64,000 nucleotides of DNA from an uncultured Candidatus Saccharibacteria bacterium (GCA_964562615.1 CAZLUD010000002.1:153300-217299); one strand, 5' to 3'. Shown: positions 14,131-48,665, counted from the first letter of the stretch. The notes: a model not told the origin generated them from the letters alone. Translations and numbers: made by a program.

Positions 14131-14194
14131 GCTCCCGCATCAAGTAGTCGGTGCACACAGACCAATTATTCGTTTCGTATTATCAGTATTCATT

Positions 14195-32152: not shown

Positions 32153-32184
32153 AGAGCAATGTTAAACCTGATTATTGTACTCGC

Positions 32185-32907: not shown

Positions 32908-32936
32908 GTTGCAGTACTGTACCAAAGATGGCGACT

Positions 32937-33923
32937 TTAGGCAACCCCATCTCCTTGGTGCTGGAGGGCACTCTCGGCTGCCTCTAGGGCGGCTACCACA
33001 GCCTCAATATCCCCTAGCATAATACCCTCGATATTGTGCCATGACTCCTTTATCCGGTGATCGGTAACTCTATCCTGCAAAAAATTGTAGGTTCGTATTT
33101 TTTCAGATCTATCAGCGGTACCCACCTGCTCTTTTCGAGTTGCGGCGTACTTTTTTGCCTCTTCTTCCTCGTAATACTTTTCAAGCTTGGCAGTCAAAAT
33201 CATAAGTGCCTTTTCGCGATTGGCTAGCTGTGATCGCTCAGAGGTAGAGCGCACATCAATACCGGTAGGTTTATGGATAAGCCTCACGGCAGTTTCCACC
33301 TTGTTAACATTTTGCCCTCCCGCACCTCCCGATCGTGAAAATTCCATTTCAAGATCAGTAGGAGGAATTTCTAATTTACTTTTCTTCCTAATAGGAAGCA
33401 CCGCAACTGATGCGGTAGACGTGTGGATGCGTCCTGTCTTTTCGGTTGCAGGTATTCTTTGAACTCTATGTACTCCCGTCTCAAATCTGAGCGCCTTATA
33501 TACACCTAGTCCGTGTATCTCAAAAGACGCTTCTTTGTACCCGCCAAGCGCTGCAGGAGAGGTGGCGAGTTTCTTCATACTCCATCCTTTTGTCTCGGCA
33601 TACCGCTCATACATAACCGCTAATTCTTCAGCAAAGAGTGCCGCTTCTTCACCTCCTGCACCTGCACGCACCTCAAGTATTGCCTCATTAGGAAAGGCAT
33701 CCTCCTCCTCTTCTTGTTTAGCAATAGATTTGAGTTGATCTACCAGTGCATCAAGTTGCGCTTGGATATTATGGAGATCATCCTCAGCTAGTGCTTTCAT
33801 TTCTTCATCATGCTCCATGAGAAGCACTGTTTCTTGTTTGTTTTTTATCAAACGTTCATACTCACCTGCAAGGTATGCGGTTTTTTGATTTTCTTTAAAG
33901 GGTGATATATCAAAGTCTTCCAT
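32937..33923 (-). CDS. prfA: Peptide chain release factor 1.
   Basis: GGQ motif [11 protein letters not shown]; PAT tripeptide ([14 protein letters not shown]) indicates RF1. Confidence 0.85.
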
Positions 33924-33937
33924 GGTTTTTAGTATAC

Positions 33938-33972
33938 AAAAATGCGCCTCGCGGAGCGAGGCGCATTTTTGT
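33938..33972 (-). terminator. Intrinsic terminator after rpmE.
   Basis: aaaaatgcgcctcgc-gg-agcgaggcgcattttt stem, followed on the minus strand by TTTTTGTAT. Confidence 0.65.
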
Positions 33973-33986
33973 ATACGGGTGCATCA

Positions 33987-34256
33987 TTACGCCTTACTTT
34001 CTTTACCCTTTGCTGCAGCTGCTCGCTTCTTAAATTTATCTACGCGTCCTGCGGTGTCGATAACTGTCTCCTTTCCTGTATAAAATGGGTGTGATGCGCT
34101 TGAGATTTCAACACTTGCGTATGGGTACTCATTGCCGTCTTTTGCCTTCTTGGTACCGCTCGTTTTAAGGGTTGAGGCAATAATATACTGCTCCCCGCTT
34201 GAGATATCCTCAAAAAGGACCGGTCGATATTCTTTTGGATGTATGTCTTTCTTCAT
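33987..34256 (-). CDS. rpmE: 50S ribosomal protein L31 (non-zinc type B).
   Basis: [13 protein letters not shown]...HPFYTG. Confidence 0.85.
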
Positions 34257-34317
34257 GTCAGAAAACTATACCAGAGAAGCGATAAAAGGCAAGAATGTCT
34301 AGCCAGTGACAAGGTCA

Positions 34318-34782
34318 CTACCACAACCGTGCTGCTGGGGTATAAATCGCGCCTGTTCTTTGGCCGGTTCTTGCAGGATCCTGTAGCGGGCAAGATCCGG
34401 GGGTACATGCTTCAAGGGCTCCGTGGATAAGTATCTTGTAGTCAACTCCATTAGAGTAGTAGAGATAACAAATACCACTACTTGCCGTACTTGGGAGTGG
34501 GTCCATTGGCATACTAGAAATGTAGGTAGGTACAATACCCGGAATACCAGCGCCACCATAACAGCCAGGACTAGTTCCTTGCCACCCACCCACGACAGGA
34601 TAGTTTCCAAAATCGTTATAGTACATTTCAACTGCTCTTTCTATTTGGCGTACGTCAGCAATACGCCGAGCGTCTCTAGCTTTACCACGCGCACTATTAA
34701 GTGACGCAAACACTACTGAGGAAAGAAGTCCTATGATCGCAATGACGACAAGTAGTTCAATAAGGGTAAATCCTCTTTTCAT
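34318..34782 (-). CDS. Type IV pilin-like protein (prepilin N-terminal cleavage/methylation domain).
   Basis: MKRG|FTLIELLVVIAIIGLLSSVVFASLNSAR. Confidence 0.8.
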   Translation of the reverse strand: MKRGFTLIELLVVIAIIGLLSSVVFASLNSARGKARDARRIADVRQIERAVEMYYNDFGNYPVVGGWQGTSPGCYGGAGIPGIVPTYISSMPMDPLPSTASSGICYLYYSNGVDYKILIHGALEACTPGSCPLQDPARTGQRTGAIYTPAARLW

Positions 34783-34797
34783 AAATAAAGTAATGTA

Positions 34798-35274
34798 CTA
34801 GTAACCCCGAGCTCCGGTAGACCAATTACCATACGCCCAACAATCTCTCACTGGGTCTATAAGTCCTGGTGCTTGCGCCTTTACCCCCGCGCAATCTTGA
34901 GGATTATGCCAAATGAGTTTGTAGTCAGCTCCATTGTCTGAACGATAAATATAATTATCACTACAATTAGTAGAATTATTTGGTGACCGAGGGAGTGTAG
35001 GGATATAGTTTGGAGCAAGTCCTGGTATCCAGTTTGTCGTACTGTTGCCCCAGCAGGTATACAACCCGTCATATCTCCCCGATGTGCTTGGGTACGCATT
35101 ATTGTCGTTATAATACAATTCTAGTGCTATTTTTAGCTGCTCAAGATCTGCGATACTTCGAGCATTTCGAGCTTTTTGTCGTGCACTATTAAGTGACGCA
35201 AACACCACCGAAGAGAGTAGTCCGATAATAGCAATCACAACAAGTAGTTCAATGAGGGTGAATCCTCTTTTCAT
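34798..35274 (-). CDS. Type IV pilin-like protein.
   Basis: MKRGFTLIELLVVIAIIGLLSSVVFASLNSARQKARNAR. Confidence 0.8.
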   Translation of the reverse strand: MKRGFTLIELLVVIAIIGLLSSVVFASLNSARQKARNARSIADLEQLKIALELYYNDNNAYPSTSGRYDGLYTCWGNSTTNWIPGLAPNYIPTLPRSPNNSTNCSDNYIYRSDNGADYKLIWHNPQDCAGVKAQAPGLIDPVRDCWAYGNWSTGARGY

Positions 35275-35297
35275 ACCTTACAGCATACCAAATATAC

Positions 35298-36707
35298 CTA
35301 TTCTCGAGAAAGGATATCTAGTTGTTTTTGGAAGTATGCTGCATGCTCCATCACCCCATCACCATAAAAGGCATAGGCGGGCTTGGTGGCATTACCCCAC
35401 CCCGCAAAGTATCTAAGAGCAGCGAGTCGCTCTGCGGCATACGTGCCAGCATCTGCACCATTATCCATCATGAGTACCCCGCTTGCCATAAAGGCATCAG
35501 CGTTTTTCCATGGATCAGAGGGGCTATTTTTGCCAAGAAGTTTTCGTATTCTGTCTTTGCTTGCAGAATATTCCCATGGCCCCGCCCAAAATTCATCCCA
35601 GCTCATTGTACGCTTTGCATTATTACAATCGTTGGTTTTTGAATTGATATAACCGCCATAACACGCCCACGTTGAAGGGATAAACTGTGCCGGCCCCATA
35701 GCGCCGCCCCACCCGTACCCTGGTTGTTTTGATACTGGCATTCTGTCTGGGTTGTAGCCAAGGGTAGAGGTTATTGCCTGAAAGAGTGGCCTATCTCGAG
35801 TAGGGTGCATATCCTCCTTCCATGTACCGGTACCAAGATACTCACCAAGCCTTGTCTCTTGTTTTAATACCCCAAGGATAAGCGCGGGGCGTACCCCCGT
35901 TGCCTTACCTGCTTGCCCTGCAAAGGTAACCGCATCACCAAAAGGTATCGCCGCAGAGTCTCGTAGTGAAAATAGCTCTGAACGAATTTCTGCAGCACTC
36001 TTTTCTTTTTGGTTGATAAGTGCTTGATATGATTTTTCTTGTCCTTTTGTTACAGAAAGAATATTTTGCTTTTGCTTTTCTTGTTGTTCAATTTTCTGCT
36101 TTTCAAGTAATTGCAGATTACGAAGCTCAGTTTCGTCAGAGCGTTTTGATTCAAGGGTGCTCTTTGCCTCTTCTGTGGTTACGACGGTATTTTCTATTTC
36201 TTCAAATGAATCTTGTAGGGCAATCTTTAATTGTGTAAACGAATCTAATTCTTCAAATACATCTGAAAGTGATTGGTTGCCAATAATAATCTCAACCATC
36301 GTAAGATCATCTATCTGATCTGTTCTACGTATGAGCTGCGCAAGAGAATTTTTCTCTCGCGTGAGTTTATCAGCAAGGCTGCCAATGGTGACCAGCTTTT
36401 CGCCTATATCGCCATTGATTTGTTGGATAGCAAGATCGCGTTGTCGTATGGCTAGCTTAGCTTTTGCAATTTGTGCATCAAGAATAGCAACGTCTCTCTC
36501 AAGCGAGACTCGCTCTTTTTGTTTACCTTCTAGTAGTACTCCCTGCGCTTGTATCTCCTTTTCTATCTGCTGTAATTGCGCTTCAAGCTCAGCGCGGCGC
36601 CGTGCTACATCTTCACTAGTTACCTGTGCTTGAAGGGTAGGCGCGTACGAATACACACCCATGCACAGTGAAAGTATAGTGATTGTGATATATCCAAAAC
36701 GCTTCAT
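35298..36707 (-). CDS. Secreted lytic transglycosylase (MltB/SLT family 3-like) with a long N-terminal coiled-coil.
   Basis: Signal peptide; ~230-aa coiled coil; C-terminal ...GVLKQETRLG...GGAMGPAQFIPSTW... Confidence 0.7.
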   Translation of the reverse strand: MKRFGYITITILSLCMGVYSYAPTLQAQVTSEDVARRRAELEAQLQQIEKEIQAQGVLLEGKQKERVSLERDVAILDAQIAKAKLAIRQRDLAIQQINGDIGEKLVTIGSLADKLTREKNSLAQLIRRTDQIDDLTMVEIIIGNQSLSDVFEELDSFTQLKIALQDSFEEIENTVVTTEEAKSTLESKRSDETELRNLQLLEKQKIEQQEKQKQNILSVTKGQEKSYQALINQKEKSAAEIRSELFSLRDSAAIPFGDAVTFAGQAGKATGVRPALILGVLKQETRLGEYLGTGTWKEDMHPTRDRPLFQAITSTLGYNPDRMPVSKQPGYGWGGAMGPAQFIPSTWACYGGYINSKTNDCNNAKRTMSWDEFWAGPWEYSASKDRIRKLLGKNSPSDPWKNADAFMASGVLMMDNGADAGTYAAERLAALRYFAGWGNATKPAYAFYGDGVMEHAAYFQKQLDILSRE

Positions 36708-36726
36708 GGTAGTCGTATTCTATCAT

Positions 36727-36762
36727 AAAACAACACACCCCTTAAGGGGTGTGTTGTTTAAC
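36727..36762 (-). terminator. Intrinsic terminator after rplY.
   Basis: aacaacacacccc-ttaa-ggggtgtgttgtt stem followed by TTTTAT. Confidence 0.65.
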
Positions 36763-36780
36763 GTCACTCTTTTGTGTTCA

Positions 36781-37431
36781 TTACTCGTCTGCTTTTGCAT
36801 CTGACTCTTCATCAGTCTTGCCTTTTTTGATTACTTCTATTGTAGAAAGGTCAGGTGCCACAGCATCTTCATCTTTTTCTTCAGTTACTGCAGCAACAAG
36901 TGCTACCACTTCTTCTGCGTTAGTGATAAGCGTAACACCCGTACTTAGCTTCAAATCCTTAGCGAGAATTTGACTCTCAAATGTCTCAAGAGTAGAAATA
37001 TCAACCTCGATACTATGAGGTAGATTCTTAGGAAGTGCTTCAATTGATACTTCGTGAAGTACTTTTACAAGGTTTCCTCCAAGTAGTTTTACTGCTGGCG
37101 CTTCACCAACGTATTCAAGTGGTACCTCCACTTCTACCATTTTGTCCGCCTCAATTGCATAAAAATCAACATGCACCGGAAGTCCTGAGATGTGATCAAT
37201 TGACACCTCTTGGATGAGTACGTCAATACCCTTTCCAAGGCCATCAAGCGTAACCACCGTTGACTCTCCCGCCTCTTCCCATACCTTTTTAAAATTAATT
37301 ACTGACACCGCGATTGGTGTTGACGCCTCCTTCTTTCCATAGACAACCGCAGGAATCATCGCCTCCTTTCTGAGGGATGCTCGCGCAGACTTTGATGTCT
37401 CTCGTTTTATTGCTTCTAGTTTTACTACCAT
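36781..37431 (-). CDS. rplY: 50S ribosomal protein L25 / general stress protein Ctc.
   Basis: Typical L25 N-terminal beta-barrel (..EAMIPAVVYGKKEASTPIAV..) plus Ctc-type C-terminal extension. Confidence 0.8.
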   Translation of the reverse strand: MVVKLEAIKRETSKSARASLRKEAMIPAVVYGKKEASTPIAVSVINFKKVWEEAGESTVVTLDGLGKGIDVLIQEVSIDHISGLPVHVDFYAIEADKMVEVEVPLEYVGEAPAVKLLGGNLVKVLHEVSIEALPKNLPHSIEVDISTLETFESQILAKDLKLSTGVTLITNAEEVVALVAAVTEEKDEDAVAPDLSTIEVIKKGKTDEESDAKADE

Positions 37432-37500
37432 ACCGCAAAACTATACCTAATTATGGATATTTGGCAACCCACACGAGGTAGTATTACTAATATAATACGG

Positions 37501-38076
37501 TTACCACCCACTGCAGGTGCCTACGCCAATACAATAGTATGGGTCATTACAACCTCCGTTATTGTTATAGTAACTACCGTCCAAATCCCCTGCAAGGCTC
37601 TGATTATTAGCATTTTCAAGACGTACAGCGAGTCGATAACTCTGACCAGTACCGCATCCTGATGGCCACGCATAATAATAGGTTGGGTCCGCATCTGAAA
37701 ACCCTGATGGACTATCTTGTGGGTCTTGAGGAACCTCAGACATAAATACCGGTCGAGAAGATAGACCAAATCCACACGATGCATCACTTGCGGTTTCTAG
37801 ACATTGCGCAAAGTAATCCCAATGCTGATCCCATGTAGGTGCTCCGGGACTACTTGGATAGCGTCCATGGGTGTCATAAAACAATTCTAGTGCGGTGCGA
37901 ATCTGCTGAAAGTCTGCTATACGTTTTGCATCACGTGCTTTACTGCGCGCGCTATTAAGTGACGCAAACACCACCGAAGAGAGTAGTCCGATGATAGCAA
38001 TGACAACAAGAAGCTCGATGAGAGTAAATCCCATCGTGGAGGATTGTCTATGATTTCTCTGTAACAAATTATGCAT
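37501..38076 (-). CDS. Type IV pilin-like protein. Start is uncertain: the leader is either MHNLLQRNHRQSSTMG|F (start 38076) or M-G|F (start 38034).
   Basis: (M)GFTLIELLVVIAIIGLLSSVVFASLNSARSKARDAKR. Confidence 0.75.
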   Translation of the reverse strand: MHNLLQRNHRQSSTMGFTLIELLVVIAIIGLLSSVVFASLNSARSKARDAKRIADFQQIRTALELFYDTHGRYPSSPGAPTWDQHWDYFAQCLETASDASCGFGLSSRPVFMSEVPQDPQDSPSGFSDADPTYYYAWPSGCGTGQSYRLAVRLENANNQSLAGDLDGSYYNNNGGCNDPYYCIGVGTCSGW

Positions 38077-38132
38077 AACTGCTACACTATATATACAGCA
38101 ATAATAGTATATCAGCTTACCAGTATTTACAC

Positions 38133-39128
38133 ATGGAAAAACTTGATTTTGTAGCAATTGGCGACATCGTAAATGATGAATTCATTGAGCTCTCACCAGA
38201 GTGGACTAAAGTAGTAACAGATACTGAAAGTGGGCGCGAGCTCCTTGCTATGAATTTTGGAGACAAAATTGAGTTTAAAGACTTTGTCATTGTTCCTGCA
38301 GTAGGCAATAGTCCAAATGCTGCAGTAAGTGCGCACCGCTTGGGTCTGCGTAGCGCGCTAGTAACTGATATGGGAGATGATGACGAGGGCGATCAGATGA
38401 TGCGCCAACTTGAGCACGAGGGTGTTGATAGACAATTTATACGAAGACATCCAGGGAAAAAATCAAATCATCATTACGTACTACGCCTTGCCCCTGAACG
38501 AACCATTTTGATTAAGCACGAAGAGTACCCCTACTCACTTCCTGATCTTGGTGAGCCATCATGGATATATTTCAGCTCGGTAGGAAATAACTCCCTCCCG
38601 TATCACCAGGAAATTGCCACGTATGTAAAAAATCACCCAGCAAGCAAATTGGTATTTCAGCCTGGATCGTTCCAAATCAAATTAGGATACGAAGTACTTA
38701 AATCAATATATGAAGCATCTACATTATTCTTTTGTAACAAAGAAGAAGCGCAGAGTATTGTAGGAAAAAAGGAGCTTGATATAAAACAATTACTGACAGC
38801 AATCCATGAAAAGGGTCCAAAAATCGTAGTGATTACTGATGGCCCACGAGGTGCCTACGCAAGCGATGGTACAAACGCCTGGCACATGCCTATGTATCCT
38901 GACATTGCCCCACCTGTTGATAGAACTGGTGCTGGTGATTCATTCTCTTCAACATTTACAAGCGCGCTTGCATTAGGACATGACATACCAACGGCATTGA
39001 GTTGGGGTCCAATTAACTCAATGTCTGTAGTACAAGAGATTGGCGCACAAAAGGGACTCCTCTCTCAAGAAGCAATACAGCAATACCTCCAAAACGCACC
39101 TGCAGAGTACACTCCGACGCTCCTATAG
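38133..39128 (+). CDS. PfkB-family carbohydrate/nucleoside kinase (ribokinase-like).
   Basis: DRTGAGDSFSSTF signature; N-terminal GG-type motif AIGDIVND. Confidence 0.75.
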   Translation: MEKLDFVAIGDIVNDEFIELSPEWTKVVTDTESGRELLAMNFGDKIEFKDFVIVPAVGNSPNAAVSAHRLGLRSALVTDMGDDDEGDQMMRQLEHEGVDRQFIRRHPGKKSNHHYVLRLAPERTILIKHEEYPYSLPDLGEPSWIYFSSVGNNSLPYHQEIATYVKNHPASKLVFQPGSFQIKLGYEVLKSIYEASTLFFCNKEEAQSIVGKKELDIKQLLTAIHEKGPKIVVITDGPRGAYASDGTNAWHMPMYPDIAPPVDRTGAGDSFSSTFTSALALGHDIPTALSWGPINSMSVVQEIGAQKGLLSQEAIQQYLQNAPAEYTPTLL

Positions 39129-39135
39129 CAAAAAG

Positions 39136-39336
39136 CTATTCTTTGTAGAGATCAACATCATCAAAATCTCTGCCCTTTAAGATTTGATCATTTTGTACTC
39201 GTGTTGCTGAGATATCAGCAATGAATGCTTCGCTGTGCGATACTTTGTAAATAAGAAACATCGCACCACCCGCTAGTAATCCGAGAAATATTCCACTGAA
39301 CCAAAAATTTAATTTTATTGCGTGTAAATTTCTCAT
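39136..39336 (-). CDS. Small membrane protein (~66 aa).
   Basis: MRNLHAIKLNFWFSGIFLGLLAGGAMFLIY. Confidence 0.3.
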   Translation of the reverse strand: MRNLHAIKLNFWFSGIFLGLLAGGAMFLIYKVSHSEAFIADISATRVQNDQILKGRDFDDVDLYKE

Positions 39337-39483
39337 GGTGATTATCTTATTAATACACAAGCATTGAGTGGGATATTGTCCAAAGAAAGTAGTATGCTCC
39401 TGCGGTGACTGATGATATAAAAAACCATGCAACAATTGGTCTTACTTCGTATGCCTTCATTGCTGAGAATTTCTTTTTCATGA

Positions 39484-40476
39484 TTACGCTTGTGTTAAGG
39501 AAATAGCTTTTTGTATGATACTAGGCACATCTAGCCCATACGCAGTGTATAACTCTTGTGTGGTACCAGACTGGCCAAATCGGTTTTGTACCCCTACAAA
39601 CGCCATCTTTGTTGGTCGATTGAGTGATAGGGTTTCTGCTACCGCTCCTCCGAGCCCGGCAATCACTTGATGCTCTTCAACGGTAAGGATGGCGTTAGTT
39701 TCATTTGCAAGTGCTACTATCGCATCGGTATCAAGAGGTTTTATAGTATGTACTGAAAGTACCACCGAGCTAATACCAAGACGAGTCTCTAATTCAACCG
39801 CAGCCTGTATGGCCTGATACACCATGCTTCCCATCGCAATGATACCTACCGTTGGCGCATTTCCTTGCCACACTCTATAGGCCTTCCCTATTTCAAATGG
39901 AGTATCTTTGGTAGTAAGTAATGGGGTATTTTCTCTTGCAAATCTAAGGTACATGGGGCGCTTACTTGTTGCAGCAGCAAGGGTTGCCTTTCTTGCTTCT
40001 TCCATGTCGGATGGGACAATCACGGTCATATTAGGTATCACCCGCATAAGCGCGACATCCTCAAGTGCTTGATGTGTTGCACCATCAGGACCCACCGAGA
40101 GGCCGGCATGCATACCACAAACCACTACTGGTTGCTCATTAAGCGCAATGGTGGTGCGTATCTGTTCATTATTGCGTCCAGGATTAAAAGCGGCGTAGGA
40201 GGTGATAAACGGCACCTTTCCCATTGATGCCATACCACTTGCTACTCCTGCAAGATTTTGTTCGGCAACCCCAAGCTCAATGTACCTATCAGGAAATTTT
40301 TCTTTAAACCAATGACTGCGGGTACTCTCTGCCAAGTCCGCACACAGCACTACTACATTGTGGTCACGCTCACCCGCCTCTACTACCCCCTTACCAAAAC
40401 CATCGCGTGTAGCACCTTCTTCTCTCGCGGTGGCATCAAGTATTCCTTTATGTAATCGGGCTTCTCCTACCAGCAT
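39484..40476 (-). CDS. Transketolase, C-terminal (pyrimidine-binding) subunit of a split enzyme.
   Basis: Pyr-binding and C-terminal domains (..MASMGKVPFITSYAAF..GMHAGLSVGPDGATHQ). Confidence 0.85.
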   Translation of the reverse strand: MLVGEARLHKGILDATAREEGATRDGFGKGVVEAGERDHNVVVLCADLAESTRSHWFKEKFPDRYIELGVAEQNLAGVASGMASMGKVPFITSYAAFNPGRNNEQIRTTIALNEQPVVVCGMHAGLSVGPDGATHQALEDVALMRVIPNMTVIVPSDMEEARKATLAAATSKRPMYLRFARENTPLLTTKDTPFEIGKAYRVWQGNAPTVGIIAMGSMVYQAIQAAVELETRLGISSVVLSVHTIKPLDTDAIVALANETNAILTVEEHQVIAGLGGAVAETLSLNRPTKMAFVGVQNRFGQSGTTQELYTAYGLDVPSIIQKAISLTQA

Positions 40477-40477
40477 A

Positions 40478-41341
40478 TTAGTCGTGGTTACTTGGAGTTA
40501 TCTTTCCTCCTAATGTACGAAGTTCTTTGAGCCATCTTAGTTCTTGCTCTTTATTTGGTGGCATACCATGCCATTTATAATCGTACTCGATCTCTTTTAT
40601 TCCCTTACCGGCTATTGCGTGCGCAATAATAAGCGTGGGCTTTTCGTACACTGCTTTTGCTTGTTCTACCGCATCAACAATTGCCTCCATGTTGTGCGCG
40701 TCTATATCAATAACATTCCAATTAAATGCTTCGTACTTGTCTTTGAGTGGCTCAAGAGGCATCACATCTTCGGTCATGCCGTTTATTTGTATATTGTTTC
40801 TGTCTATTATAGCGGTGAGATTTGATAGCTTGTACTTACCCGCAAACATAACCGCCTCCCACACATTACCTGCATCCTGCTCACCATCACCCATCATGCA
40901 ATACGTGCGAAATGGTTTTTTATCCATTCGGGCGGCAAGTGCAATTCCTGCTGCTTGAGAAAGTCCAGTACCCAACGGACCAGAAGTGGTTTCCATTTCT
41001 GGTAACAAAATACGTTCAGGGTGTCCCTGCATACGTGATCCAAATTTTCTAAGTGTTTTAGCTTCTTCAACACTAAAATAACCCGCAAGCGCCATCGTTG
41101 CGTACCGTATAGGAACAATATGTCCGTTAGAGAGGATGAATCTATCCCTCTCCTCAAACATTGGTTCTTTTGGCGAATGATTTAATATATGAAAATAAAA
41201 TGCAGTAAACACATCCGCCATACCAAGCGGACCTGCGGTGTGCCCTGACCCAGCATCCTCAAGCATGTCGATAAGCAATTGCCGTACTTCGTTTGCTTTG
41301 TTTTCAAGAAAAAGTCTTTTTTCTTCTGTGAGATATGCCAT
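40478..41341 (-). CDS. Transketolase, N-terminal (TPP-binding) subunit.
   Basis: GSGHTAGPLGMADV; GDGEQDAGNVWEA (TPP-binding GDG motif). Confidence 0.85.
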   Translation of the reverse strand: MAYLTEEKRLFLENKANEVRQLLIDMLEDAGSGHTAGPLGMADVFTAFYFHILNHSPKEPMFEERDRFILSNGHIVPIRYATMALAGYFSVEEAKTLRKFGSRMQGHPERILLPEMETTSGPLGTGLSQAAGIALAARMDKKPFRTYCMMGDGEQDAGNVWEAVMFAGKYKLSNLTAIIDRNNIQINGMTEDVMPLEPLKDKYEAFNWNVIDIDAHNMEAIVDAVEQAKAVYEKPTLIIAHAIAGKGIKEIEYDYKWHGMPPNKEQELRWLKELRTLGGKITPSNHD

Positions 41342-41384
41342 TACTACTATGATACCTCAAATAGACGCTTTCGGTATCCACACA

Positions 41385-41898
41385 CTAGCGTTCAAAGCCT
41401 CCTAAGACATAATCAAATTCTCCTTGCCAGTATCGTGATGGACAACTCCATCCAGGTGAATCTGGGTGTGGGTTAGGAGATGTCTCCATGTCCCGTACCC
41501 CAAGTACAAAATATGCCCCACGAGCACTATCGCACCCTGCATAGCCCGCTGGGTACCGGTAGTAATTGTATCCTTGGCAGTCAGCAGTAAATCCCTCGTC
41601 GATGGGCACTCTCCCTCCAAAATAGGTGTCCATACCCCTTCCGTTAAGTAGTGGGTATGTACGGTTGCCATTATCCCACCCACCGCATCCATCAAAATCT
41701 GAATCTGGGTAGGCGTTATAATCTGAATAATACAACGCGAGCGCTTTTACGATTTCTTGAATCTCTGCCAATCGTGCGGCATCTCGTGCCTTTGTGCGCG
41801 CACTATTAAGCGAGGCAAATACCACCGATGAAAGTAGTCCGATGATGGCGATAACCACAAGTAGCTCAATGAGGGTAAACGCACCGCTTATGCTTCAT
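41385..41898 (-). pseudogene. Type IV pilin-like gene with a +1 frameshift between its ATG (MKHKR.., 41898..41896) and the conserved pilin body (..AFTLIELLVVIAIIG.., which starts with GTG at 41858 in the ORF track).
   Basis: ATG AAG CAT AAG CGG runs into TGA in frame. The FTLIELLVV frame is offset by one nucleotide, consistent with a single extra base near cggTgcg. Confidence 0.55.
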
Positions 41899-42583
41899 GG
41901 ATAGCGTCTTCTGCTATGGTGAGTAATGTGTGGTACGCATCTTTTGGTGACGCATCTGCAAAGATTGCTGACCCTGCGGCAAAGTGCGTGGCGCCTGCTG
42001 TGATTAGTTTTTTAATGGTGCGCTTACTAACACCAATATCCACTCCAATCACAACCTCGCTCATTGCATGTATACGCGAGATGATGTCATATACTCGCTC
42101 ATCAAGTGATGTACCCTGTCTACCTATAGTATCGCTTCCCATTACTTGGAGAAGGTCAATCTCATTGAGTAATGTCTCATAACCTTGTGACGATGGGGTA
42201 ATTGCAAGACCTACTCGTGTCCCGCGCTCGCGCGCACGACTAATACATTCACTTAGTTCACTTGCTGAGCATGAGGTAAAGTGAAATATAAGTGTTGACG
42301 ACCCGGCATCAATCCATGCATCAATATGCTCTTTTGGATTTGCTACCATAAGGTCAATTTCATACTCAACTCTATCCCATTTTGGAAGACCTGTATCTTG
42401 CGCGAGAATTTCTTGCCACTCACCATCTGCCTTAGCACCTATCGGCCACGTTGATGGTGTCGCAAACACACCATCAACAATATCAATTTGTATATGCGTT
42501 GCAGGAGGTGCAATAAGAGAGACTTTTTCGCTCAGATCTGCGTATGACGTTGGCAATATGGCGGGTAAAAGCTGGATAGTCAT
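41888..42583 (-). CDS. rpe: Ribulose-phosphate 3-epimerase.
   Basis: TIM-barrel Rpe pattern: ..ILPTSYADL..HIQIDIVDGVF..DLMVANP..GATHFAAGSAIF. Confidence 0.75.
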   Translation of the reverse strand: MTIQLLPAILPTSYADLSEKVSLIAPPATHIQIDIVDGVFATPSTWPIGAKADGEWQEILAQDTGLPKWDRVEYEIDLMVANPKEHIDAWIDAGSSTLIFHFTSCSASELSECISRARERGTRVGLAITPSSQGYETLLNEIDLLQVMGSDTIGRQGTSLDERVYDIISRIHAMSEVVIGVDIGVSKRTIKKLITAGATHFAAGSAIFADASPKDAYHTLLTIAEDAIHEA

Positions 42584-42593
42584 ATACGTACAG

Positions 42594-43100
42594 TTATCGC
42601 GAACAAACGGCGTAATTCATATTATACCCTGGGTTAACTGGTACTGTGGCAAAACGAGCAGTATCCTCAGGAGTAGGACTTTCAAGCTGTGCGTACACGC
42701 ACACACTCGTCTGTGATCCATATGGGTGATAAATCATGTAATGATTGCCAGGATCTGGATGCTTTATTTCACCTGATGTAAAACCTGCGTTCATAAGTGC
42801 TCTTGAAACAGACAATGCATAGCTTCCAGTGTCTTGATAATCAAACCAACCACATGAGCATCCCTGCCACCCTGACCCAGCAACTTGAAATGTATTATAC
42901 GTATCATAATACAATTGGAGCGCAGTCATTGCCTGCGAAAGATCTTGCTTTCGCTTTGCATCTCGCGCCTTTCCACGAGCACTATTAAGCGACGCAAATA
43001 CCACCGATGAAAGTAGCCCGATGATGGCGATAACCACGAGTAGCTCAATGAGGGTAAATCCTTTTTTGTTTTTTGCGCGCTGTTGATAATAGGTAAACAT
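42594..43100 (-). CDS. Type IV pilin-like protein.
   Basis: MFTYYQQRAKNKKG|FTLIELLVVIAIIGLLSSVVFASLNSARGKARDAKR. Confidence 0.8.
   Translation of the reverse strand: MFTYYQQRAKNKKGFTLIELLVVIAIIGLLSSVVFASLNSARGKARDAKRKQDLSQAMTALQLYYDTYNTFQVAGSGWQGCSCGWFDYQDTGSYALSVSRALMNAGFTSGEIKHPDPGNHYMIYHPYGSQTSVCVYAQLESPTPEDTARFATVPVNPGYNMNYAVCSR
42955..43061. repeat. ~107-nt segment (pilin 5' end) nearly identical to 44476..44582.
   Basis: tttgcatctcgcgcctttccacgagcactattaagcgacgcaaataccaccgatgaaagtagcccgatgatggcgataaccacgagtagctcaatgag... with 3-4 mismatches against the second copy. Confidence 0.8.
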
Positions 43101-43202
43101 TGGTATTCTCTAAGAAATAAAATAGTACATTAATAGTAACATACCCTTGCTTTTTTTTATTTTTTGTATAGTATTAATCATACAAATGGCCACTAGGCCC
43201 CC

Positions 43203-43230
43203 GAGAAACCCCGCTTAGGCGGGGTTTCGA
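43203..43230. terminator. GC-rich hairpin between the MazF-like gene and the next pilin gene.
   Basis: aaaccccgc-ttag-gcggggttt stem; weak T-run on the plus side only. Confidence 0.4.
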
Positions 43231-43233
43231 CTT

Positions 43234-43620
43234 TTATAACTTTGGAAAGAATTGCTGAACTTGAGCCAAAATTTTCTTGAACTGATTTTTCGGTAATTTA
43301 TACATAAGACGTTCTAGACGTTTGCTACTAACAAGTCTAAGTTGAGAAAGGATAACTGCCGATCCTTCTTGTCCGCCAATCGGAAAATAATACTGATTTC
43401 GCTTATCTGATGTAGTAAGTGGAAGTGCCCAAAAAACGTCCCTATTAAATTTCTTTATTACCAGAACGGGCCTTTCGAACTTTTCTCCACCATCTTGCTC
43501 ATACCCCACGTTTAGCCCAAGCGAACACCACCATATCTCTCGCTCATGAAAGAACGGAACATTCTCTCTTTCATGAATAATTTTCTTTTTCTTATTCCAG
43601 ACTTCAAAATCTTTTTTCAT
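43234..43620 (-). CDS. PemK/MazF-fold (mRNA-interferase-like) protein. It has no partner: no adjacent antitoxin ORF.
   Basis: EIWWCSLGLNVGYEQDGGEKFERPVLVIKKF...ALPLTTS fits the MazF/Kid N-terminal pattern (dl.p..G.EQ.G.RP.lvi...a.P.T). Confidence 0.5.
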   Translation of the reverse strand: MKKDFEVWNKKKKIIHERENVPFFHEREIWWCSLGLNVGYEQDGGEKFERPVLVIKKFNRDVFWALPLTTSDKRNQYYFPIGGQEGSAVILSQLRLVSSKRLERLMYKLPKNQFKKILAQVQQFFPKL

Positions 43621-43628
43621 GCTACCAC

Positions 43629-44078
43629 CTATAACGTATCAAGCTTGTGATTACGTCTACTATGTCGCTCCTCATTTGGAAAAATTGTCGTAAGAAATAT
43701 TTTAACCGCCGCCTTTGCCTCATCATGAGTCAAAAACCTTGCGCCGAGTGATAACGCATTTGCATCATTATGCTCTCTACTCAAGGTTATAAGCTCAAGG
43801 TTGTTGGTATTGTAAGATACTGCTCGTACCCCCTTAAAACGGTTTGCCATAATCGCCTCTCCATACCCTGATCCACCAAGTATGATTGCTCGAGTGTCTT
43901 CATCTGCGTGTGAGAGTTCTTTTGCAGCAAGTGCAATGTAGTCATTGTAATCATCATCCGCGACAAGAGCACTTGCTCCCATATCAACAACTTCGTGCCC
44001 TAATACATGAGCTACATACTCAACAAGCACCTCTTTTAGAGCGAAGCCTGCGTGATCTGTTGCAAATAATATTTTCAT
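43629..44078 (-). CDS. rpiB: Ribose-5-phosphate isomerase B.
   Basis: MKILFATDHAGF...GGSGYGEAIMANR...HNDANALSLGARF. Confidence 0.85.
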   Translation of the reverse strand: MKILFATDHAGFALKEVLVEYVAHVLGHEVVDMGASALVADDDYNDYIALAAKELSHADEDTRAIILGGSGYGEAIMANRFKGVRAVSYNTNNLELITLSREHNDANALSLGARFLTHDEAKAAVKIFLTTIFPNEERHSRRNHKLDTL

Positions 44079-44087
44079 AAATGAATT

Positions 44088-44621
44088 TTAGTGGTCAGCA
44101 AACATATACGGGCTATAGCCGTAGCCGCCTCCCGCATAACTGCACCAATAAGTTTCTCCTCCCCAATCATGATATCGCCAACCTCGTACCGCGCATCGCT
44201 CAGGATGACTTGTGTTTTCAAATTGTCCAACGAGGTCATATTTTTGACCTGAACCAGAGCCGTATACATACGTATAGTAGCCATTATTCCACGGACCAGC
44301 ACATGAGGTATTGATAGGATCCTTTGGCAAACTTGGCATATATGCTGTTAAAGCACTTTGTAAGTTATTCCATGACGAATCACAGCTATACCACCACCCT
44401 CCAATTGGATACGCACCATTTGCATCATAATAAAGCTCAAGCGCTATTCTTACCTGCTGTAAATCAGCCTGTCTTTTTGCATCTCGCGCCTTTGCACGAG
44501 CACTATTAAGCGACGCAAATACCACCGATGAAAGTAGCCCGATGATGGCGATAACCACGAGTAGCTCAATGAGTGTAAACCCCTTTCTTGTATTATTACT
44601 TAATGAAGAGAAAGTACCCAT
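44088..44621 (-). CDS. Type IV pilin-like protein.
   Basis: MGTFSSLSNNTRKG|FTLIELLVVIAIIGLLSSVVFASLNSARAKARDAKR. Confidence 0.8.
   Translation of the reverse strand: MGTFSSLSNNTRKGFTLIELLVVIAIIGLLSSVVFASLNSARAKARDAKRQADLQQVRIALELYYDANGAYPIGGWWYSCDSSWNNLQSALTAYMPSLPKDPINTSCAGPWNNGYYTYVYGSGSGQKYDLVGQFENTSHPERCAVRGWRYHDWGGETYWCSYAGGGYGYSPYMFADH
44476..44582. repeat. Second copy of the ~107-nt pilin 5'-end repeat (see 42955..43061).
   Basis: Near-identical sequence. Five other pilin genes share a more diverged (~80-90%) version. Confidence 0.8.
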
Positions 44622-44626
44622 TATAG

Positions 44627-45664
44627 TTATATATACTTTCCCGCTTCTTTGACGTGCTGTATAAGCGAGTGAGTGTAGCCCATTTCATTGTCGTACCACG
44701 CAAGTACCTTAACAAGGTCACCATCTACCACCTGCGTAAGGGAGAGATCCGCTATTGAGGCAAAGGGCTGTCCCAACACATCACTTGATACTATAGGTTC
44801 TTCTGTGAATGAAAACACATCTTTCCACCGAGGAGTAAGTGCCGCTTCTTTAAGTGCGGTGTTTACTTCTGCTACTGAGGTACGTCTTTTTGCAACAAAT
44901 GTAATATCAGCAATTGACCCTGCGATTACAGGCACTCGCATTGCCACCCCATCAAATTTTCCTGCAAGATCGGTAATAGCCTTGGTGGTAGCAACCGCTG
45001 CGCCGGTAGTGGTGGGTACAATGTTGTGTGCTGCAGCTCTCCCTTCTTTCCAATCTTTTGGTTTGGTACCGTCGACAATAGATTGACTTGCGGTATAAGC
45101 ATGGGTGGTGTTAAGCATTGCCTTTTCTATGCCAATAGCCTCATGCAATATTTGTATCACAGGAGACACGGCATTAGTGGTGCATGATGCATTAGAAGAT
45201 ATATCTGCGTCTTTAAGAAGCTCGGTATTAATACCCATTAGCGCGGTAACTCCAACAATTCCATTTGGTGCCTCGTCTTTTACCGGAGCGCTGATAACCA
45301 CTCGTTTAGCTCCTGCCTCAAGATGTACTCGCGCCTTTTCATAACTTGCAAATACACCGGTAGATTCAAGGACTATATCAATATCTAATTCACCCCACGG
45401 CAACATGGTGGGATCTTTTTCTGATAAAAATCTCGTATGATTACCCTCAACATCCATAAACACCGCACTCCCCTCCTTTTTTATTTTTGGGTCAAACCCG
45501 CTTCGCCCATACACCGTGTCGTATTTAAGCAGATACGCAAGATTTTCTGCGTCGCCTAAGTCATTAATGGCGATTATTTGTAATTCAGGAATATTTTTAG
45601 CAACACTAAAAAATGCCCTTCCTATTCTTCCAAATCCATTTATTGCTACTCGTATTCTTTTCAT
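44627..45664 (-). CDS. gap: Glyceraldehyde-3-phosphate dehydrogenase (type I).
   Basis: RVAINGFGRIGR; catalytic SNASCTTN; overall GAPDH layout. Confidence 0.9.
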   Translation of the reverse strand: MKRIRVAINGFGRIGRAFFSVAKNIPELQIIAINDLGDAENLAYLLKYDTVYGRSGFDPKIKKEGSAVFMDVEGNHTRFLSEKDPTMLPWGELDIDIVLESTGVFASYEKARVHLEAGAKRVVISAPVKDEAPNGIVGVTALMGINTELLKDADISSNASCTTNAVSPVIQILHEAIGIEKAMLNTTHAYTASQSIVDGTKPKDWKEGRAAAHNIVPTTTGAAVATTKAITDLAGKFDGVAMRVPVIAGSIADITFVAKRRTSVAEVNTALKEAALTPRWKDVFSFTEEPIVSSDVLGQPFASIADLSLTQVVDGDLVKVLAWYDNEMGYTHSLIQHVKEAGKYI

Positions 45665-45728
45665 TGTATCTAGTATACATTACTTTTTTTCAACATATCA
45701 CCTTTATTCCCATTCTTTTGTTCTGCCG

Positions 45729-46259
45729 TTATATACCCCCCGTCGTTACTTTATAATTTGGTCTATTAGAAGAGCCGCACGCACCCGCCCCACCTCGCAA
45801 CCAATTATCTGTACCACTTGCTGGGTTGAGATTATTTTGGGTCTGATCTTCAAGAGTGGCATACAGCGCGTACTGTGTTGCTCCTGCATTTGGCGCAGAA
45901 CAATTGTTATATACGTTGCTTATATATAAATATGAATTGTTGTAACAGCTTCCATCTTGTGGGTCCTTAGGAAAAGTAGGAAGAAACTGTAACATTTTTG
46001 ACTCCATAGCAAGACTTGTCTCAATTTGATAATCAACCGCTGGACATGCGCTAGATGGGTATCCACCATACGTGTCGTAATACAATTCGAGCCCTTTCTG
46101 AAGCTCAGCTAGATCGGCTTTTCTTCGAGCATCGCGAGCCTTTCCACGCGCGGTATTTAATGACGCAAATACTACCGACGAAAGTAGCCCGATGATGGCG
46201 ATAACCACCAGAAGCTCGATGAGGGTAAATCCATGTTTGTATCTTAAAAATTTATGCAT
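45729..46259 (-). CDS. Type IV pilin-like protein.
   Basis: MHKFLRYKHG|FTLIELLVVIAIIGLLSSVVFASLNTARGKARDARR. Confidence 0.8.
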   Translation of the reverse strand: MHKFLRYKHGFTLIELLVVIAIIGLLSSVVFASLNTARGKARDARRKADLAELQKGLELYYDTYGGYPSSACPAVDYQIETSLAMESKMLQFLPTFPKDPQDGSCYNNSYLYISNVYNNCSAPNAGATQYALYATLEDQTQNNLNPASGTDNWLRGGAGACGSSNRPNYKVTTGGI

Positions 46260-46571
46260 AGAATATTGTGCACAGTATACTATATTGATTACTCGATTGG
46301 CGCTGCAGCTGGCGCATCACCTAATATACATCCCATACACTTATAAGTGGTGGTAATGTCGAGTTTTATTACAATAGTGGAGATTACACCAACGTATCAA
46401 GCTACCTATTTAAAAGGATCAAGCGTATCTATATATTCTATTAGTAAGAGTAATTTACCACTCTCTGATTATGAAAATTTAAGTAGGAAATTGTACAAAA
46501 ATACACTCACATCTTCACGCTTAAGTTGGCATCCCTTGAAAATCTATCTCGTCTAAACGAGATACGTTGAT

Positions 46572-47195
46572 TTATAAAGATATTTCGGATGCTGATACCA
46601 CCTGGACTCCTCGGGTAAGTCCTTCTGAATCAGAGTATGAGTATGTTGCTTCAAGCCCGAAAGTAGCGATTGCAAACAGTAGTACCGCGGCAGCTGGTAG
46701 CAAAATGCCCTGCATAGTAAATCTAACACTGCGAGGAGTGTGTCGTACCTGAATTGGCGACAGTATCTCTCTTTTAACCGGCACTGTCTCTACTGGTGAG
46801 ACTAGCGACTCTGTTTTTTGTGGCAAATCCTTTGATACCATTGGATAGAGGGGTGCATCGTCATATTCAAACATTATTTGCTCCTCATTTTTAGGAATAA
46901 ATGATGATCTTTTTGATAATTCCTCAACAAGGTACTTTTGCCTCTCGGTGTAGGTGCCCTTTCTCTTAATTTCTACAGCCATACCCCTTGGAGAATTCTC
47001 AGAAATTCGCTTTTGAACCTTTCTGCCGCAAAGAGATGTCTGCTCGACGTACCAAGTACGCCCAACCAACCTACAGTCTGCTCTGTTAGCTCTACAAAGC
47101 TGACCAATGTAATCAGTAGTATATCCAGTAAGCTGTGACGCTCGTACTGAAGATACATACGCCTTACCATTAAAGACTAGTGCATTCTCCTTCAT
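46572..47195 (-). CDS. Membrane-anchored protein with an N-terminal excisionase-type (HTH_17-like) helix-turn-helix.
   Basis: SSVRASQLTGYTTDYIGQLCRANRADCRLVGRTWYV resembles the AlpA/Xis HTH; C-terminal TM ILLPAAAVLLFAIATFGL. Confidence 0.4.
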   Translation of the reverse strand: MKENALVFNGKAYVSSVRASQLTGYTTDYIGQLCRANRADCRLVGRTWYVEQTSLCGRKVQKRISENSPRGMAVEIKRKGTYTERQKYLVEELSKRSSFIPKNEEQIMFEYDDAPLYPMVSKDLPQKTESLVSPVETVPVKREILSPIQVRHTPRSVRFTMQGILLPAAAVLLFAIATFGLEATYSYSDSEGLTRGVQVVSASEISL

Positions 47196-47267
47196 GTGGT
47201 AATTATACCACCAAGCACCCTCTAGAGCACAAGGTATTTGTGCACAGGTCGGCTAGACGAGATATTT

Positions 47268-48665
47268 TTATGATTTTACAGCACTTATTATTGCCTCACG
47301 CAGCTTCTGCGGATTTGCTGAGCCTTTAGATAACTTCATTCCTTGCCCTACCAAAAACTGTAGTGAGCTATCCTTGCCTTTAGTATATTCAACAACTACA
47401 GCAGCATTCACCGCAATCACCTCTTTTGCAATAGCAATAAGTAGCGAATCATCATTTACCTGAAGCAGCCCAAGGCTAGTAGCAATAGCTTTTGCATCAT
47501 TATCTCCTGATTCATTTAATGATTTGAGCAAATCTTTAGCCCCTCTTGAAGATAGCTCGCCAGATTCAAGTAGACCAATAAGGGAACGCATACCAAGGGT
47601 GGTAAGCTGATTTCTACCCCCTAATCCATTTAGATCCGAGGTAAGATAATTGGCTGCCTTAGTAACAAATGAAGTAACTGACTCATTACCACTTATAACC
47701 TCATCAAAAAAGTGACCTAATTCAATCTGATTAGTGAGCGTATCCCGTACATCAGCAGCAATACCATACGAGTCGAGGCGCCTTCTTCTCTCTTCAGGTA
47801 ATTCTGGCATCAACGCTTTAAGTGCCTCAACAGAAAATTCTGGGATTTCTGAGATTACATATTTTGGAATGTCTGGATCTGGAAAATATCGATAGTCGTG
47901 CGCGCTTTCCTTTTTTCTTTGAGAGAATGTTTTTTCACCCATTTCGTCCCACCCTCGTGTCTCCTGAACTATCTCGTCTCCCCGAGATATCGCTTCAATA
48001 TGACGTTTTATTTCGAACTCAATCGCCCTCTCTACTGACTTAAATGAATTGAGATTTTTTACTTCTACCTTGGTGCCAAGTGCGTCGGTTGCACTTACTG
48101 ATATGTTTGCCTCAACTCGCATCTCACCTCTTTCCATATTTGCATCAGAGACACCAAGTGTTCGAAGAAGTAACTGTAGCTCCTTAGCAAAGGCACTTGC
48201 CTCCTCACCACTGTGGAGCACTGGCTCTGTCACCAACTCCATAAGAGGCACTCCTGCTCTGTTAAAATCAACGAGGCTGCCGCTTATACTCTCGTGTGAT
48301 GACTTTGCCGTATCCTCCTCAAGATGGATACGTGTTAGCAAAACGCCTTTTATGCTACCTCCAGATACTAGTGGATGCTTGTACTGGCTTATCTGGTAGC
48401 CTTTTGGAATATCTGGGTAGAAATAGTTCTTTCTATCAAATTCTGTGTAGTCAGCTAGAGTGCCGCCAACCGCAACACCAACAGTAAGCACCTTTTTAAC
48501 TGCTTCTTTGTTAACCCGAGGAAGTACCCCTGGATGCCCCATACATACTGGGCAAATATTAGTATTTGGCTCTGCTGATGGGTCATTAGCAGAGTTACAA
48601 AACATCTTTGTTTTAGTCTTTAGCTCTACGTGTATTTCAAGACCGATAGTAGGTTTAAATTCCAT
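47268..48665 (-). CDS. gatB: Asp/Glu-tRNA amidotransferase subunit B.
   Basis: MEFKPTIGLEIHVEL...CPVCMGHPGVLP; C-terminal YqeY-like domain. Confidence 0.9.
   Translation of the reverse strand: MEFKPTIGLEIHVELKTKTKMFCNSANDPSAEPNTNICPVCMGHPGVLPRVNKEAVKKVLTVGVAVGGTLADYTEFDRKNYFYPDIPKGYQISQYKHPLVSGGSIKGVLLTRIHLEEDTAKSSHESISGSLVDFNRAGVPLMELVTEPVLHSGEEASAFAKELQLLLRTLGVSDANMERGEMRVEANISVSATDALGTKVEVKNLNSFKSVERAIEFEIKRHIEAISRGDEIVQETRGWDEMGEKTFSQRKKESAHDYRYFPDPDIPKYVISEIPEFSVEALKALMPELPEERRRRLDSYGIAADVRDTLTNQIELGHFFDEVISGNESVTSFVTKAANYLTSDLNGLGGRNQLTTLGMRSLIGLLESGELSSRGAKDLLKSLNESGDNDAKAIATSLGLLQVNDDSLLIAIAKEVIAVNAAVVVEYTKGKDSSLQFLVGQGMKLSKGSANPQKLREAIISAVKS

Follow-up and report, generated by a model that had tools for sequence, protein, structure and literature searches.

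Seven type IV pilin-like paralogs interleaved with housekeeping genes in a Paceibacteria genome, with gene conversion apparently confined to their 5′ ends

The 64,000-nt stretch of DNA from an uncultured ultra-small bacterium analyzed here (GCA_964562615.1, CAZLUD010000002.1:153300–217299; hereafter the window) contains, between positions 34318 and 46259, seven minus-strand genes for type IV pilin-like proteins, which we call pil1 to pil7 and which lie among genes of central metabolism and translation. We consider it likely that they represent an ordinary pilin family in an unusual arrangement: an old and stable interleaving, globular heads kept by selection, gene conversion limited to a short 5′ cassette, and one machine serving all the products. 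Neither the family nor the type of recombination is new; what sets the locus apart is that the genes are threaded one by one through essential operons.

Seven minus-strand pilin-like genes had been described in an initial annotation of this DNA, and a degenerate pattern back-translated from FTLIELLVVIAIIG matched the window at exactly seven sites, all on the minus strand, and at none in 100 shuffles. An independent repeat search found a 191-nt direct-repeat family with seven copies. Each ORF encodes a leader of 4–16 residues followed by G↓FTLIELLVVIAIIGLLSSVVFASLN(S/T)AR.KAR (the arrow marks the cleavage site), with pil4, which has Ala at position −1, as the exception. Mature residues 1–28 are the same in all seven pilins save for a single Ser to Thr replacement in pil7. 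From pil1 to pil7, the codons of the first mature residue (Phe+1) lie at 34770, 35262, 38028, 41879, 43058, 44579, and 46229, and the ORFs end, stop codon included, at 34318, 34798, 37501, 41385, 42594, 44088, and 45729. The leader lengths and the protein lengths of 154–177 residues agree with the initial annotation, pil3 reaching 191 residues if ATG 38076 is used; six of the pilins have four cysteines and pil3 has seven. The predicted genes are as follows.

34318–34782, minus strand: pil1, a prepilin ORF of 154 residues with 4 cysteines and leader MKRG↓FTLIEL; Pfam N_methyl 32.8 bits; sister-species ortholog 94% identical in amino acids.
34798–35274, minus strand: pil2, a prepilin of 158 residues with leader MKRG, separated by 15 nt from pil1 on its downstream side and by 23 nt from the LT gene on its upstream side; N_methyl and T2SSG above cut-off, GspG model at 59 bits, below cut-off; ortholog 94% identical.
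37501–38076, minus strand: pil3, a prepilin of 191 residues from ATG 38076 with leader MHNLLQRNHRQSSTMG, the first gene past the divergent pfkB; the alternative ATG 38034 would give a leader of just 2 residues, and the sister ortholog likewise has the long start (191 residues).
41385–41898, minus strand: pil4, a pilin with a disrupted 5′ end, an intact head ORF, and Ala at residue −1.
42594–43100, minus strand: pil5, a prepilin of 168 residues with leader MFTYYQQRAKNKKG, preceded by a 133-nt spacer with a hairpin; ortholog 77% identical.
44088–44621, minus strand: pil6, a prepilin of 177 residues, 5 nt past gap and 9 nt ahead of rpiB, for which an AlphaFold2 model and profile matches were obtained.
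45729–46259, minus strand: pil7, a prepilin of 176 residues with leader MHKFLRYKHG, the first gene past a 312-nt spacer; ortholog 97% identical.

All seven proteins match the Pfam N_methyl family (PF07963) and six reach its cut-off, pil4 scoring 20.7 against 21.2 bits when read from Phe+1; T2SSG is passed by pil2 alone (24.3 against 21). The NCBIfam model TIGR02532 was above its cut-off in all three pilins tested (pil2, pil5, and pil6), and the best named NCBIfam model for these three was GspG (TIGR01710), at 41–59 bits, short of its cut-off of 88.85 bits. Phe+1 and Glu+5 are present in every pilin and Gly−1 in six (pil4, without an in-frame start, has Ala−1). A profile built from pil6 and 43 homologs matched solved pilins (Geobacter PilA, Thermus PilA4, Neisseria PilE, and S. 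sanguinis PilE1) as well as the GspG pseudopilus 5wda, over residues 12–103 (E 1.7e-13). The AlphaFold2 model of pil6, the sole pilin modeled, has a pLDDT of 92.4 and a pTM of 0.80 and shows a 52-residue N-terminal helix (17–68) followed by a beta head; its top Foldseek matches in the PDB, though weak, are all pilins or pseudopilins, with EpsG (4lw9) first, and include gonococcal pilin (1ay2) and C. difficile PilA1. C143 and C160 of pil6 are conserved at at least 90% among 44 homologs, so the C-terminal cysteine pair characteristic of the pilin D-region is present, and the disulfide itself is predicted. Because the motif, Pfam and NCBIfam, profile, and model evidence point the same way, the seven genes encode type IV/GspG-like prepilins and are related paralogs, which bears out their initial description as type IV pilin-like. 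The heads, on the other hand, had been called unrelated in sequence. Pairwise BLASTP past residue 32 gave 27–40% identity (lowest E value 7e-18), and 31–41% was obtained when the sequences past residue 36 were aligned globally; the heads are diverged homologs.

The window's GAPDH has its closest relatives, among 185,579 representative genomes, in metagenome-assembled Paceibacteria/Parcubacteria genomes, with identities no higher than 64%, and the window comes from a genome of the Paceibacteria, which belong to the Candidate Phyla Radiation (CPR). The window proteins were mapped onto about 75 loci; the order of the housekeeping backbone proved common to most of about 70 related genomes, and most of these have no pilin or one within 10 kb on either side of gap. 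Two features of the window are needed to describe the pilin positions.

31571–48665, minus strand: conserved Paceibacteria backbone, comprising gatB, gap, rpiB, rpe, tktN, tktC, (pfkB, on the plus strand), rplY, LT, rpmE, prfA, rpsB, and tsf.
35298–36707, minus strand: LT, a backbone gene whose coiled-coil product has an SLT_2-like domain at its C-terminal end.

The pilins occupy the slots before gap (pil7) and between gap and rpiB (pil6), mazF and rpe (pil5), rpe and tktN (pil4), pfkB and rplY (pil3), and LT and rpmE (pil2 and pil1). The initial annotation had the genes alternating one by one with rpmE, prfA, rplY, pfkB, tkt, rpe, rpiB, and gap, which stands for rpmE, rplY, pfkB, tktN/tktC, rpe, rpiB, and gap, except that pil1 and pil2 are adjacent and prfA merely follows rpmE. 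It also placed a coiled-coil lytic transglycosylase among the pilins. LT does contain a coiled coil, with a weak EnvC-like match, and its C-terminal half matches SLT_2 only at threshold (24.4 against 24.3 bits); the gene lies between rplY and rpmE in relatives without pilins and is thus not pilin-specific.

The spacers around the pilins are mostly 5–70 nt and the genes are co-oriented. Promoter-like sites, a hairpin, or long spacers occur at only a few junctions, upstream of pil7, pil5, pil3 (promoter-like site at 38115–38086), rplY, and rpmE, and the last two of these upstream regions are the most conserved stretches between the window and its sister species (94–98%). From this layout we infer five transcription units: pil7-gap-pil6-rpiB-mazF; pil5-rpe-pil4-tktN-tktC; pil3; rplY-LT-pil2-pil1; and a unit beginning rpmE-prfA.

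The age of the arrangement can be judged from a sister genome. Cluster look-ups located counterparts at at least 90% identity for six of the seven pilins on one 92.6-kb NCBI contig. This contig (GCA_964409035.1, locus L094), from a sister species, repeats the interleaved order, and each of the seven pilins is found there in its corresponding slot. Nucleotide identity between the window and the sister is about 80–86%, synonymous codon identity among identical residues about 0.5–0.6, and pS 0.5–0.8, that is, dS is about 1 or saturated; by these sequence measures the two genomes belong to different species. Because the sister carries the same genes in the same slots, the interleaved arrangement of seven paralogs predates the species split. 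Positional orthologs of the pilins share 77–97% amino-acid identity, and head dN is 0.03–0.05 in six pilins and 0.21 in pil5, against a pS of 0.6–0.8. The heads fall within the range of their housekeeping neighbors (dN 0–0.05, save rpe at 0.18 and rpiB at 0.38), and dN/dS is at most 0.04 wherever dS is finite. Each head is thus under strong purifying selection, and the stability of the heads at near-saturated synonymous sites argues against head shuffling of the pilE/pilS kind. A contig from the Joint Genome Institute (JGI) represents a second strain, with 9 SNPs over 11,170 nt, and is collinear, with no rearrangement.

The 5′ ends of the genes behave differently from the heads. The tracts concerned are listed here.

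42955–43069, minus strand: 5′ cassette of pil5, a tract near-identical to that of pil6 (identical run 43052–42974).
44476–44591, minus strand: 5′ cassette of pil6, the partner of the pil5 tract (identical run 44573–44495), within which several public short-read contigs end.
35186–35226, minus strand: mosaic run of pil2 and pil3, 41 nt identical to pil3 37952–37992, with diverged flanking synonymous sites.

Pairwise DNA identity among the copies is 74–97% over the first 105 nt, a wider spread than the 80–97% initially given for the first ~100 nt, and 75–99% over the first 84 nt; a codon-usage null with the peptide held constant gives an expected identity of about 72%. As a measure of concerted evolution we counted identical codons among the 28 invariant residues, for which 9.2 ± 2.4 is expected under the null and 20 was the highest value reached in 200,000 simulations. 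Seven of the 21 pairs within the window exceed the null after Bonferroni correction. The other 14 fail (12 of the 21 have a nominal p > 0.03), so most pairs do show the freely diverged synonymous sites that the initial annotation had named as evidence against itself; pil4, pil5, pil6, and pil7, and also pil2 and pil3, clearly do not. The highest count is 27 of 28 codons for pil5–pil6, followed by 23 for pil4–pil5, 22 for pil4–pil6, 19 for pil5–pil7, and 18 each for pil2–pil3 and pil6–pil7. As initially noted, two copies are only 3–4 nt apart: pil5 and pil6 differ at 3 positions in the first 105 nt (3–4 over the cassette) and share a 79-nt identical run, and their identity drops sharply past codon 36, to about 32% in amino acids.

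The window cassettes share only 11–18 of the 28 codons with their own sister orthologs (14–18 for pil4, pil5, and pil6; pil5 14, pil6 16). In the sister, pil1 and pil2 share 26 of 28 codons, compared with 14 of 28 in the window. Since cassettes within a genome thus exceed orthologs in likeness, and since a different pair is homogenized in each species, we infer conversion. A more distant genome (locus L087) served as a control: its block contains five pilins whose N-terminal peptides are almost the same, and its pilin pairs show 7–16 identical codons among the 28–32 amino-acid-identical positions of the first 35 codons. So few shared codons imply that selection on the protein alone is insufficient to produce the cassette identity. 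A sister ortholog exists for every head, which means that the paralogs predate the split and rules out recent duplication. Lineage-specific gene conversion (concerted evolution) after speciation, confined to the 5′ cassette, is therefore well supported by these codon comparisons, in a test that rests on two genomes, the window and the sister. The cassettes had been proposed as suitable substrates for gene conversion, and the codon counts indicate that they have in fact recombined.

A 24-nt core at cassette codons 18–25 (TCG GTG GTA TTT GCG TCA CTT AAT) is nearly invariant in the 14 copies of the two species; it includes the rare Ser codon TCG, and the flanking synonymous sites vary. RNA structure was considered as the cause and rejected, the folding of the seven 5′ regions giving z values of −1.6 to +0.9 and no common fold. 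A conversion hotspot and a codon-level constraint are both possibilities. The cassettes also leave a mark on public data: short-read contigs (loci L002–L006) end within the cassette runs 44495–44573 and 46180–46208, at 44544, 44550, 44495, and 46209, and a search with the 43-residue N-terminal peptide returned many partial pilin fragments and short proteins only. Assemblies from short reads thus break up at the cassettes, and metagenome-assembled CPR genomes probably yield underestimates of pilin numbers and contexts. Two public contigs begin at 45796, within the 3′ part of pil7, for no apparent reason.

One of the seven genes is damaged at its start. The start codons initially proposed stand for the other pilins, and ATG 41898 of pil4 is shifted by one base from the frame of Phe+1 (41879). 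Sequence inspection found no ATG, GTG, or TTG between the upstream stop and Phe+1, and a TGA ends the proper frame five codons upstream. Alignment with the intact sister gene (leader MRQNSA↓FTL) reveals a single inserted T in the pil4 leader, and this 1-nt insertion explains the missing in-frame start; rpe is extended across the leader, which overlaps the end of rpe. The frameshift is not an assembly error, because the same sequence is present in the independent JGI contig from the second strain. The in-frame start has been lost in this population. Residue −1 is Ala in both species. Within 41880–41898, an ATA in the pil4 frame overlaps the rpe stop codon (A-TAA). Reinitiation at this ATA is conceivable and would give the leader M-S-G-A↓F; otherwise, pil4 would be a very recent pseudogene with an intact head ORF.

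Relatives of the pilins were found beyond the two sister species. Homologs of pil6 at 60–73% identity occur in many metagenomes, and three of five contexts lie in the same housekeeping block, in other gaps, with the other two elsewhere. Locus L095 has pil6-like genes at rpiB/rpe and at tktN/tktC, JGI 3300048101 has four pilins between tktN and tktC, and the five pilins of L087 alternate with fba and a gene for a 2-hydroxyacid dehydrogenase in the gap from pfkB to rplY. Because relatives hold pilins in other gaps, the link of this pilin clade to the block is older than the two sister species, with positions that have shifted. The broader idea that the block is a general pilin home across Paceibacteria had to be tempered, as only about 10 of 70 representative genomes have any pilin there, roughly what random placement might yield; the nearest relatives of pil6, however, do cluster in the block. 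Scans of metagenome contigs with degenerate cassette patterns gave no matches. In another relative (L073), three pilins of the same subfamily are followed by a prepilin peptidase gene (A24) and three minor-pilin-like genes, and dependence of the window pilins on the prepilin peptidase PilD is supported by analogy.

Type IV pili of CPR bacteria have been described in previous work. Type IV pilus machinery without a secretin is widespread in the CPR, together with a very large pilin family, fam000005 (PMC6744442); Paceibacteria attached to methanogens carry pilin clusters with pilBCDMT (PMC9763046); and in Saccharibacteria two type IV pili, with about 12 pilins, have been shown experimentally to mediate host binding (PMC11623550, PMC9894109). 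CPR bacteria have also been reported to be naturally competent, with Com components (PMC10187176, PMC6744442). A literature search found no earlier account of the interleaved arrangement or of concerted evolution of pilin 5′ ends in the CPR, which is no proof of novelty.

The initial annotation had interpreted the cassettes as a means of shuffling variable heads, comparable to pilE/pilS variation, in which 5′ cassettes would move heads into an expressed site or create mosaic heads and so vary the surface. The cassettes demonstrably recombine, all copies lie inside 12 kb, and pil4, having no start, could count as a silent copy. However, each head has an ortholog in the same position and is strongly conserved across two species near synonymous saturation, six of the seven copies are complete with their own start, leader, and constant region, the defective pil4 keeps its constant region, and the two strains have the same architecture. 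Homology is limited to the 5′ side, so that swapping a head would take a further crossover between non-homologous sequences; and since gap, rpiB, rpe, and tkt lie between these direct repeats, they would be lost in a single crossover. No G4 motif (G3+N1-7 x4) is present on either strand of the whole window. The sequence comparisons largely refute pilE/pilS-like variation on this timescale, and we regard it as very improbable. Two other switching mechanisms were rejected: slipped-strand phase variation, as the leaders and coding regions contain no long homopolymers and only a T8 lies about 50 nt upstream of pil5; and invertase-type switching, as the copies are co-oriented and relevant inverted repeats are absent.

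That the 5′ likeness of pil4, pil5, and pil6 arose from collapsed or chimeric repeats in the assembly, or from recent duplication, is hardly credible either. The identical runs are hard spots for assemblers, as the breaks in the public short-read contigs attest, but the independently assembled JGI contig, which covers pil6, pil5, pil4, pil3, pil2, and part of pil1, has the same cassettes in the same order, and the 3–4 differences between pil5 and pil6 recur in it. Recent duplication is at odds with paralogs that predate the split and yet have cassettes more alike than those of orthologs. A further reading takes the proteins as pseudopilins of a type II secretion-like system or of a Com pseudopilus, the copies being major and minor subunits of a short fiber for DNA uptake or export. 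GspG is the best named model, weaker matches to ComGC/GD/GE/GF exist, pil2 has the T2SSG domain, the pil6 profile matches 5wda, and competence with Com components has been reported in the CPR. Every GspG and Com score nevertheless stays below its family cut-off; the single N-terminus, Glu+5 included, and the similar sizes are unlike the differentiated GspH/I/J/K or ComGD/GE/GF; L073 holds separate minor-pilin-like genes with divergent N-termini; and no outer membrane or secretin is expected in the CPR (PMC6744442). We consider the pseudopilin reading unlikely.

We therefore return to an ordinary pilin family, unusually arranged. The genes encode seven anciently duplicated type IVa/GspG-like prepilin paralogs, each built from a short basic leader, an invariant polymerization module (the G↓F cleavage site and Glu+5 along with a hydrophobic alpha1-N segment of 28 residues), and its own globular head with two predicted disulfides. 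Lying inside or at the head of housekeeping units, they would probably be expressed with or alongside genes of glycolysis, the pentose-phosphate pathway, and translation, rather than from a pilus operon of their own. The products would probably be cleaved by a PilD encoded elsewhere and polymerized by one type IV pilus machine; alternative or mixed filaments are possible because the core helix (alpha1-N) is identical, and the function at the surface would differ from head to head, attachment to a host and binding of DNA being examples. Purifying selection on the protein would be what mainly keeps the N-terminal module identical, with occasional lineage-specific RecA-type conversion across roughly 40–115 nt that homogenizes neighboring cassettes and moves no heads. 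Such conversion may be a by-product of the near-identity of nearby direct repeats that helps to keep the module uniform.

Several observations weigh against this reading. No pilB/C/D/M/N/O/T gene was found in the 64-kb window or about 5 kb past its end, so processing and assembly of the pilins are deduced rather than read from the locus. The Foldseek matches of the pil6 head are weak (E 0.06–1, TM 0.3–0.45, best probability 0.85). The promoter scan gave fewer sites than shuffles, and co-transcription rests on spacing and consensus scans. The codon-usage null may understate the baseline if transmembrane-helix codons are biased, a point that the sister and L087 controls address, though with only two genomes.

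The threading itself might also be functional rather than neutral. The cassettes would then serve as dispersed, portable homology anchors through which parts of the housekeeping block could be swapped or reshuffled, and the essential genes between the direct repeats would lock the seven-member repertoire against loss by recombination and, in a genome poor in regulators, tie its expression to core metabolism. An anchor role would fit a probably xenologous rpiB and mazF segment between pil6 and pil5 and the pil6-like genes in other gaps of related genera. We hold this version to be doubtful, and the individual roles of the threading (stabilization of the repertoire, coupling of expression, homology anchoring) are speculative. 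Pili are thought to be the main host-contact organ of CPR bacteria, almost all of which are uncultured, and seven heads under strong purifying selection on one invariant helix, wired into housekeeping operons, point to a constitutive, multi-specificity pilus repertoire rather than to variation of an immune type. The locus also offers a clean two-genome example of module-limited concerted evolution, and a practical warning that CPR pilin counts from short-read assemblies are probably too low.

Some features of the neighborhood deserve mention. In the segment 43101–44078, rpiB (43629–44078) is followed by a gene for a PemK/MazF toxin (mazF, 43234–43620), which lies between rpiB and pil5, has no obvious antitoxin, and is absent from the sister species, and by a strong GC hairpin (43205–43228). 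rpiB is 53% identical to the sister copy, with neighbors at 90–98%, and the sister copy is as distant as those of other genera. This distance suggests xenologous replacement of the rpiB and mazF segment, bounded by pil6 and pil5. The intergenic stretches 34262–34292 and 37437–37467, upstream of rpmE and rplY, are 94–98% identical to the sister, above coding DNA, and the sigma-70-like sites that score best are found in them (TTGCCT/TTGCCA-16-TATAGT). The rpmE–prfA spacer contains a perfect inverted repeat of 21 nt (33932–33976), and the spacer between rplY and LT a 16-nt palindrome (36728–36759); these elements, together with the two upstream stretches, are likely conserved regulatory or terminator elements. 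Short ORFs of 43–99 residues without a family match lie between tktC and pfkB (39136–39483), and at least one is probably real because the stretch is 68–83% identical to the sister.

Farther away, 4543–11319 encodes a repetitive surface protein of 2258 residues, in which numerous Ig-like repeats are combined with a membrane anchor at the C-terminus, adjoining a sortase-domain protein (11403–12278). In the sister (L094 1–6156), a giant surface protein of 4529 residues lies directly upstream of pil7, replacing gatB/hyp207. Two paralogous secreted or membrane proteins of about 420–444 residues are encoded on the plus strand at 12166–13500 and 14102–15364; they have Thr/Pro-rich linkers and similar C-terminal domains, and a small Cys-rich ORF lies between them.

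Among known systems, the window pilins resemble those of other CPR/Patescibacteria, namely fam000005 (PMC6744442) and PilA1/PilA2 with the minor pilins of Nanosynbacter lyticus TM7x (PMC11623550): they share the class III signal peptide, the 'lollipop' architecture, a small genome with many paralogs, N-termini that are conserved and heads that diverge, and a role presumed to lie in host contact. The TM7x pilins, however, lie in four loci with machinery genes, whereas the seven window pilins, whose alpha1-N segments are 100% identical, are threaded singly between housekeeping genes with no machinery nearby. Neisseria pilE/pilS likewise combines several pilin copies per genome with non-reciprocal recombination. 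There, however, the variable segments come from silent copies lacking the 5′ constant region and promoter, hypervariability is seen in the heads, and the process requires a G4; in the window, conversion appears in the constant 5′ part only, the copies are complete (six of seven), the heads are conserved, and there is no G4. The heteropolymer of Streptococcus sanguinis PilE1/PilE2 (8pfb) and Thermus thermophilus PilA4/PilA5 (6xxd, 8qqj) also involve more than one major-type pilin with similar N-terminal helices, but each has two pilins, encoded in or near pil loci, and co-assembly is experimental there and presumed here. With GspG/PulG/EpsG, which also supplies the top, though weak, Foldseek match (4lw9), the window pilins share the N-terminus and the alpha1-C motif KARDA..DL..I..ALE.YY.D.G.YP; they differ in scoring below the equivalog cut-off and in having larger heads with two predicted disulfides, and the organism presumably lacks an outer membrane or a type II secretion system (T2SS).

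The recombination itself has a counterpart in tufA/tufB of Salmonella, dispersed paralogs that exceed orthologs in likeness through RecA-dependent conversion. In tufA/tufB the whole gene is homogenized, whereas the tract in the window is roughly 40–115 nt, corresponding to the polymerization module, and the rest of each pilin gene evolves independently.

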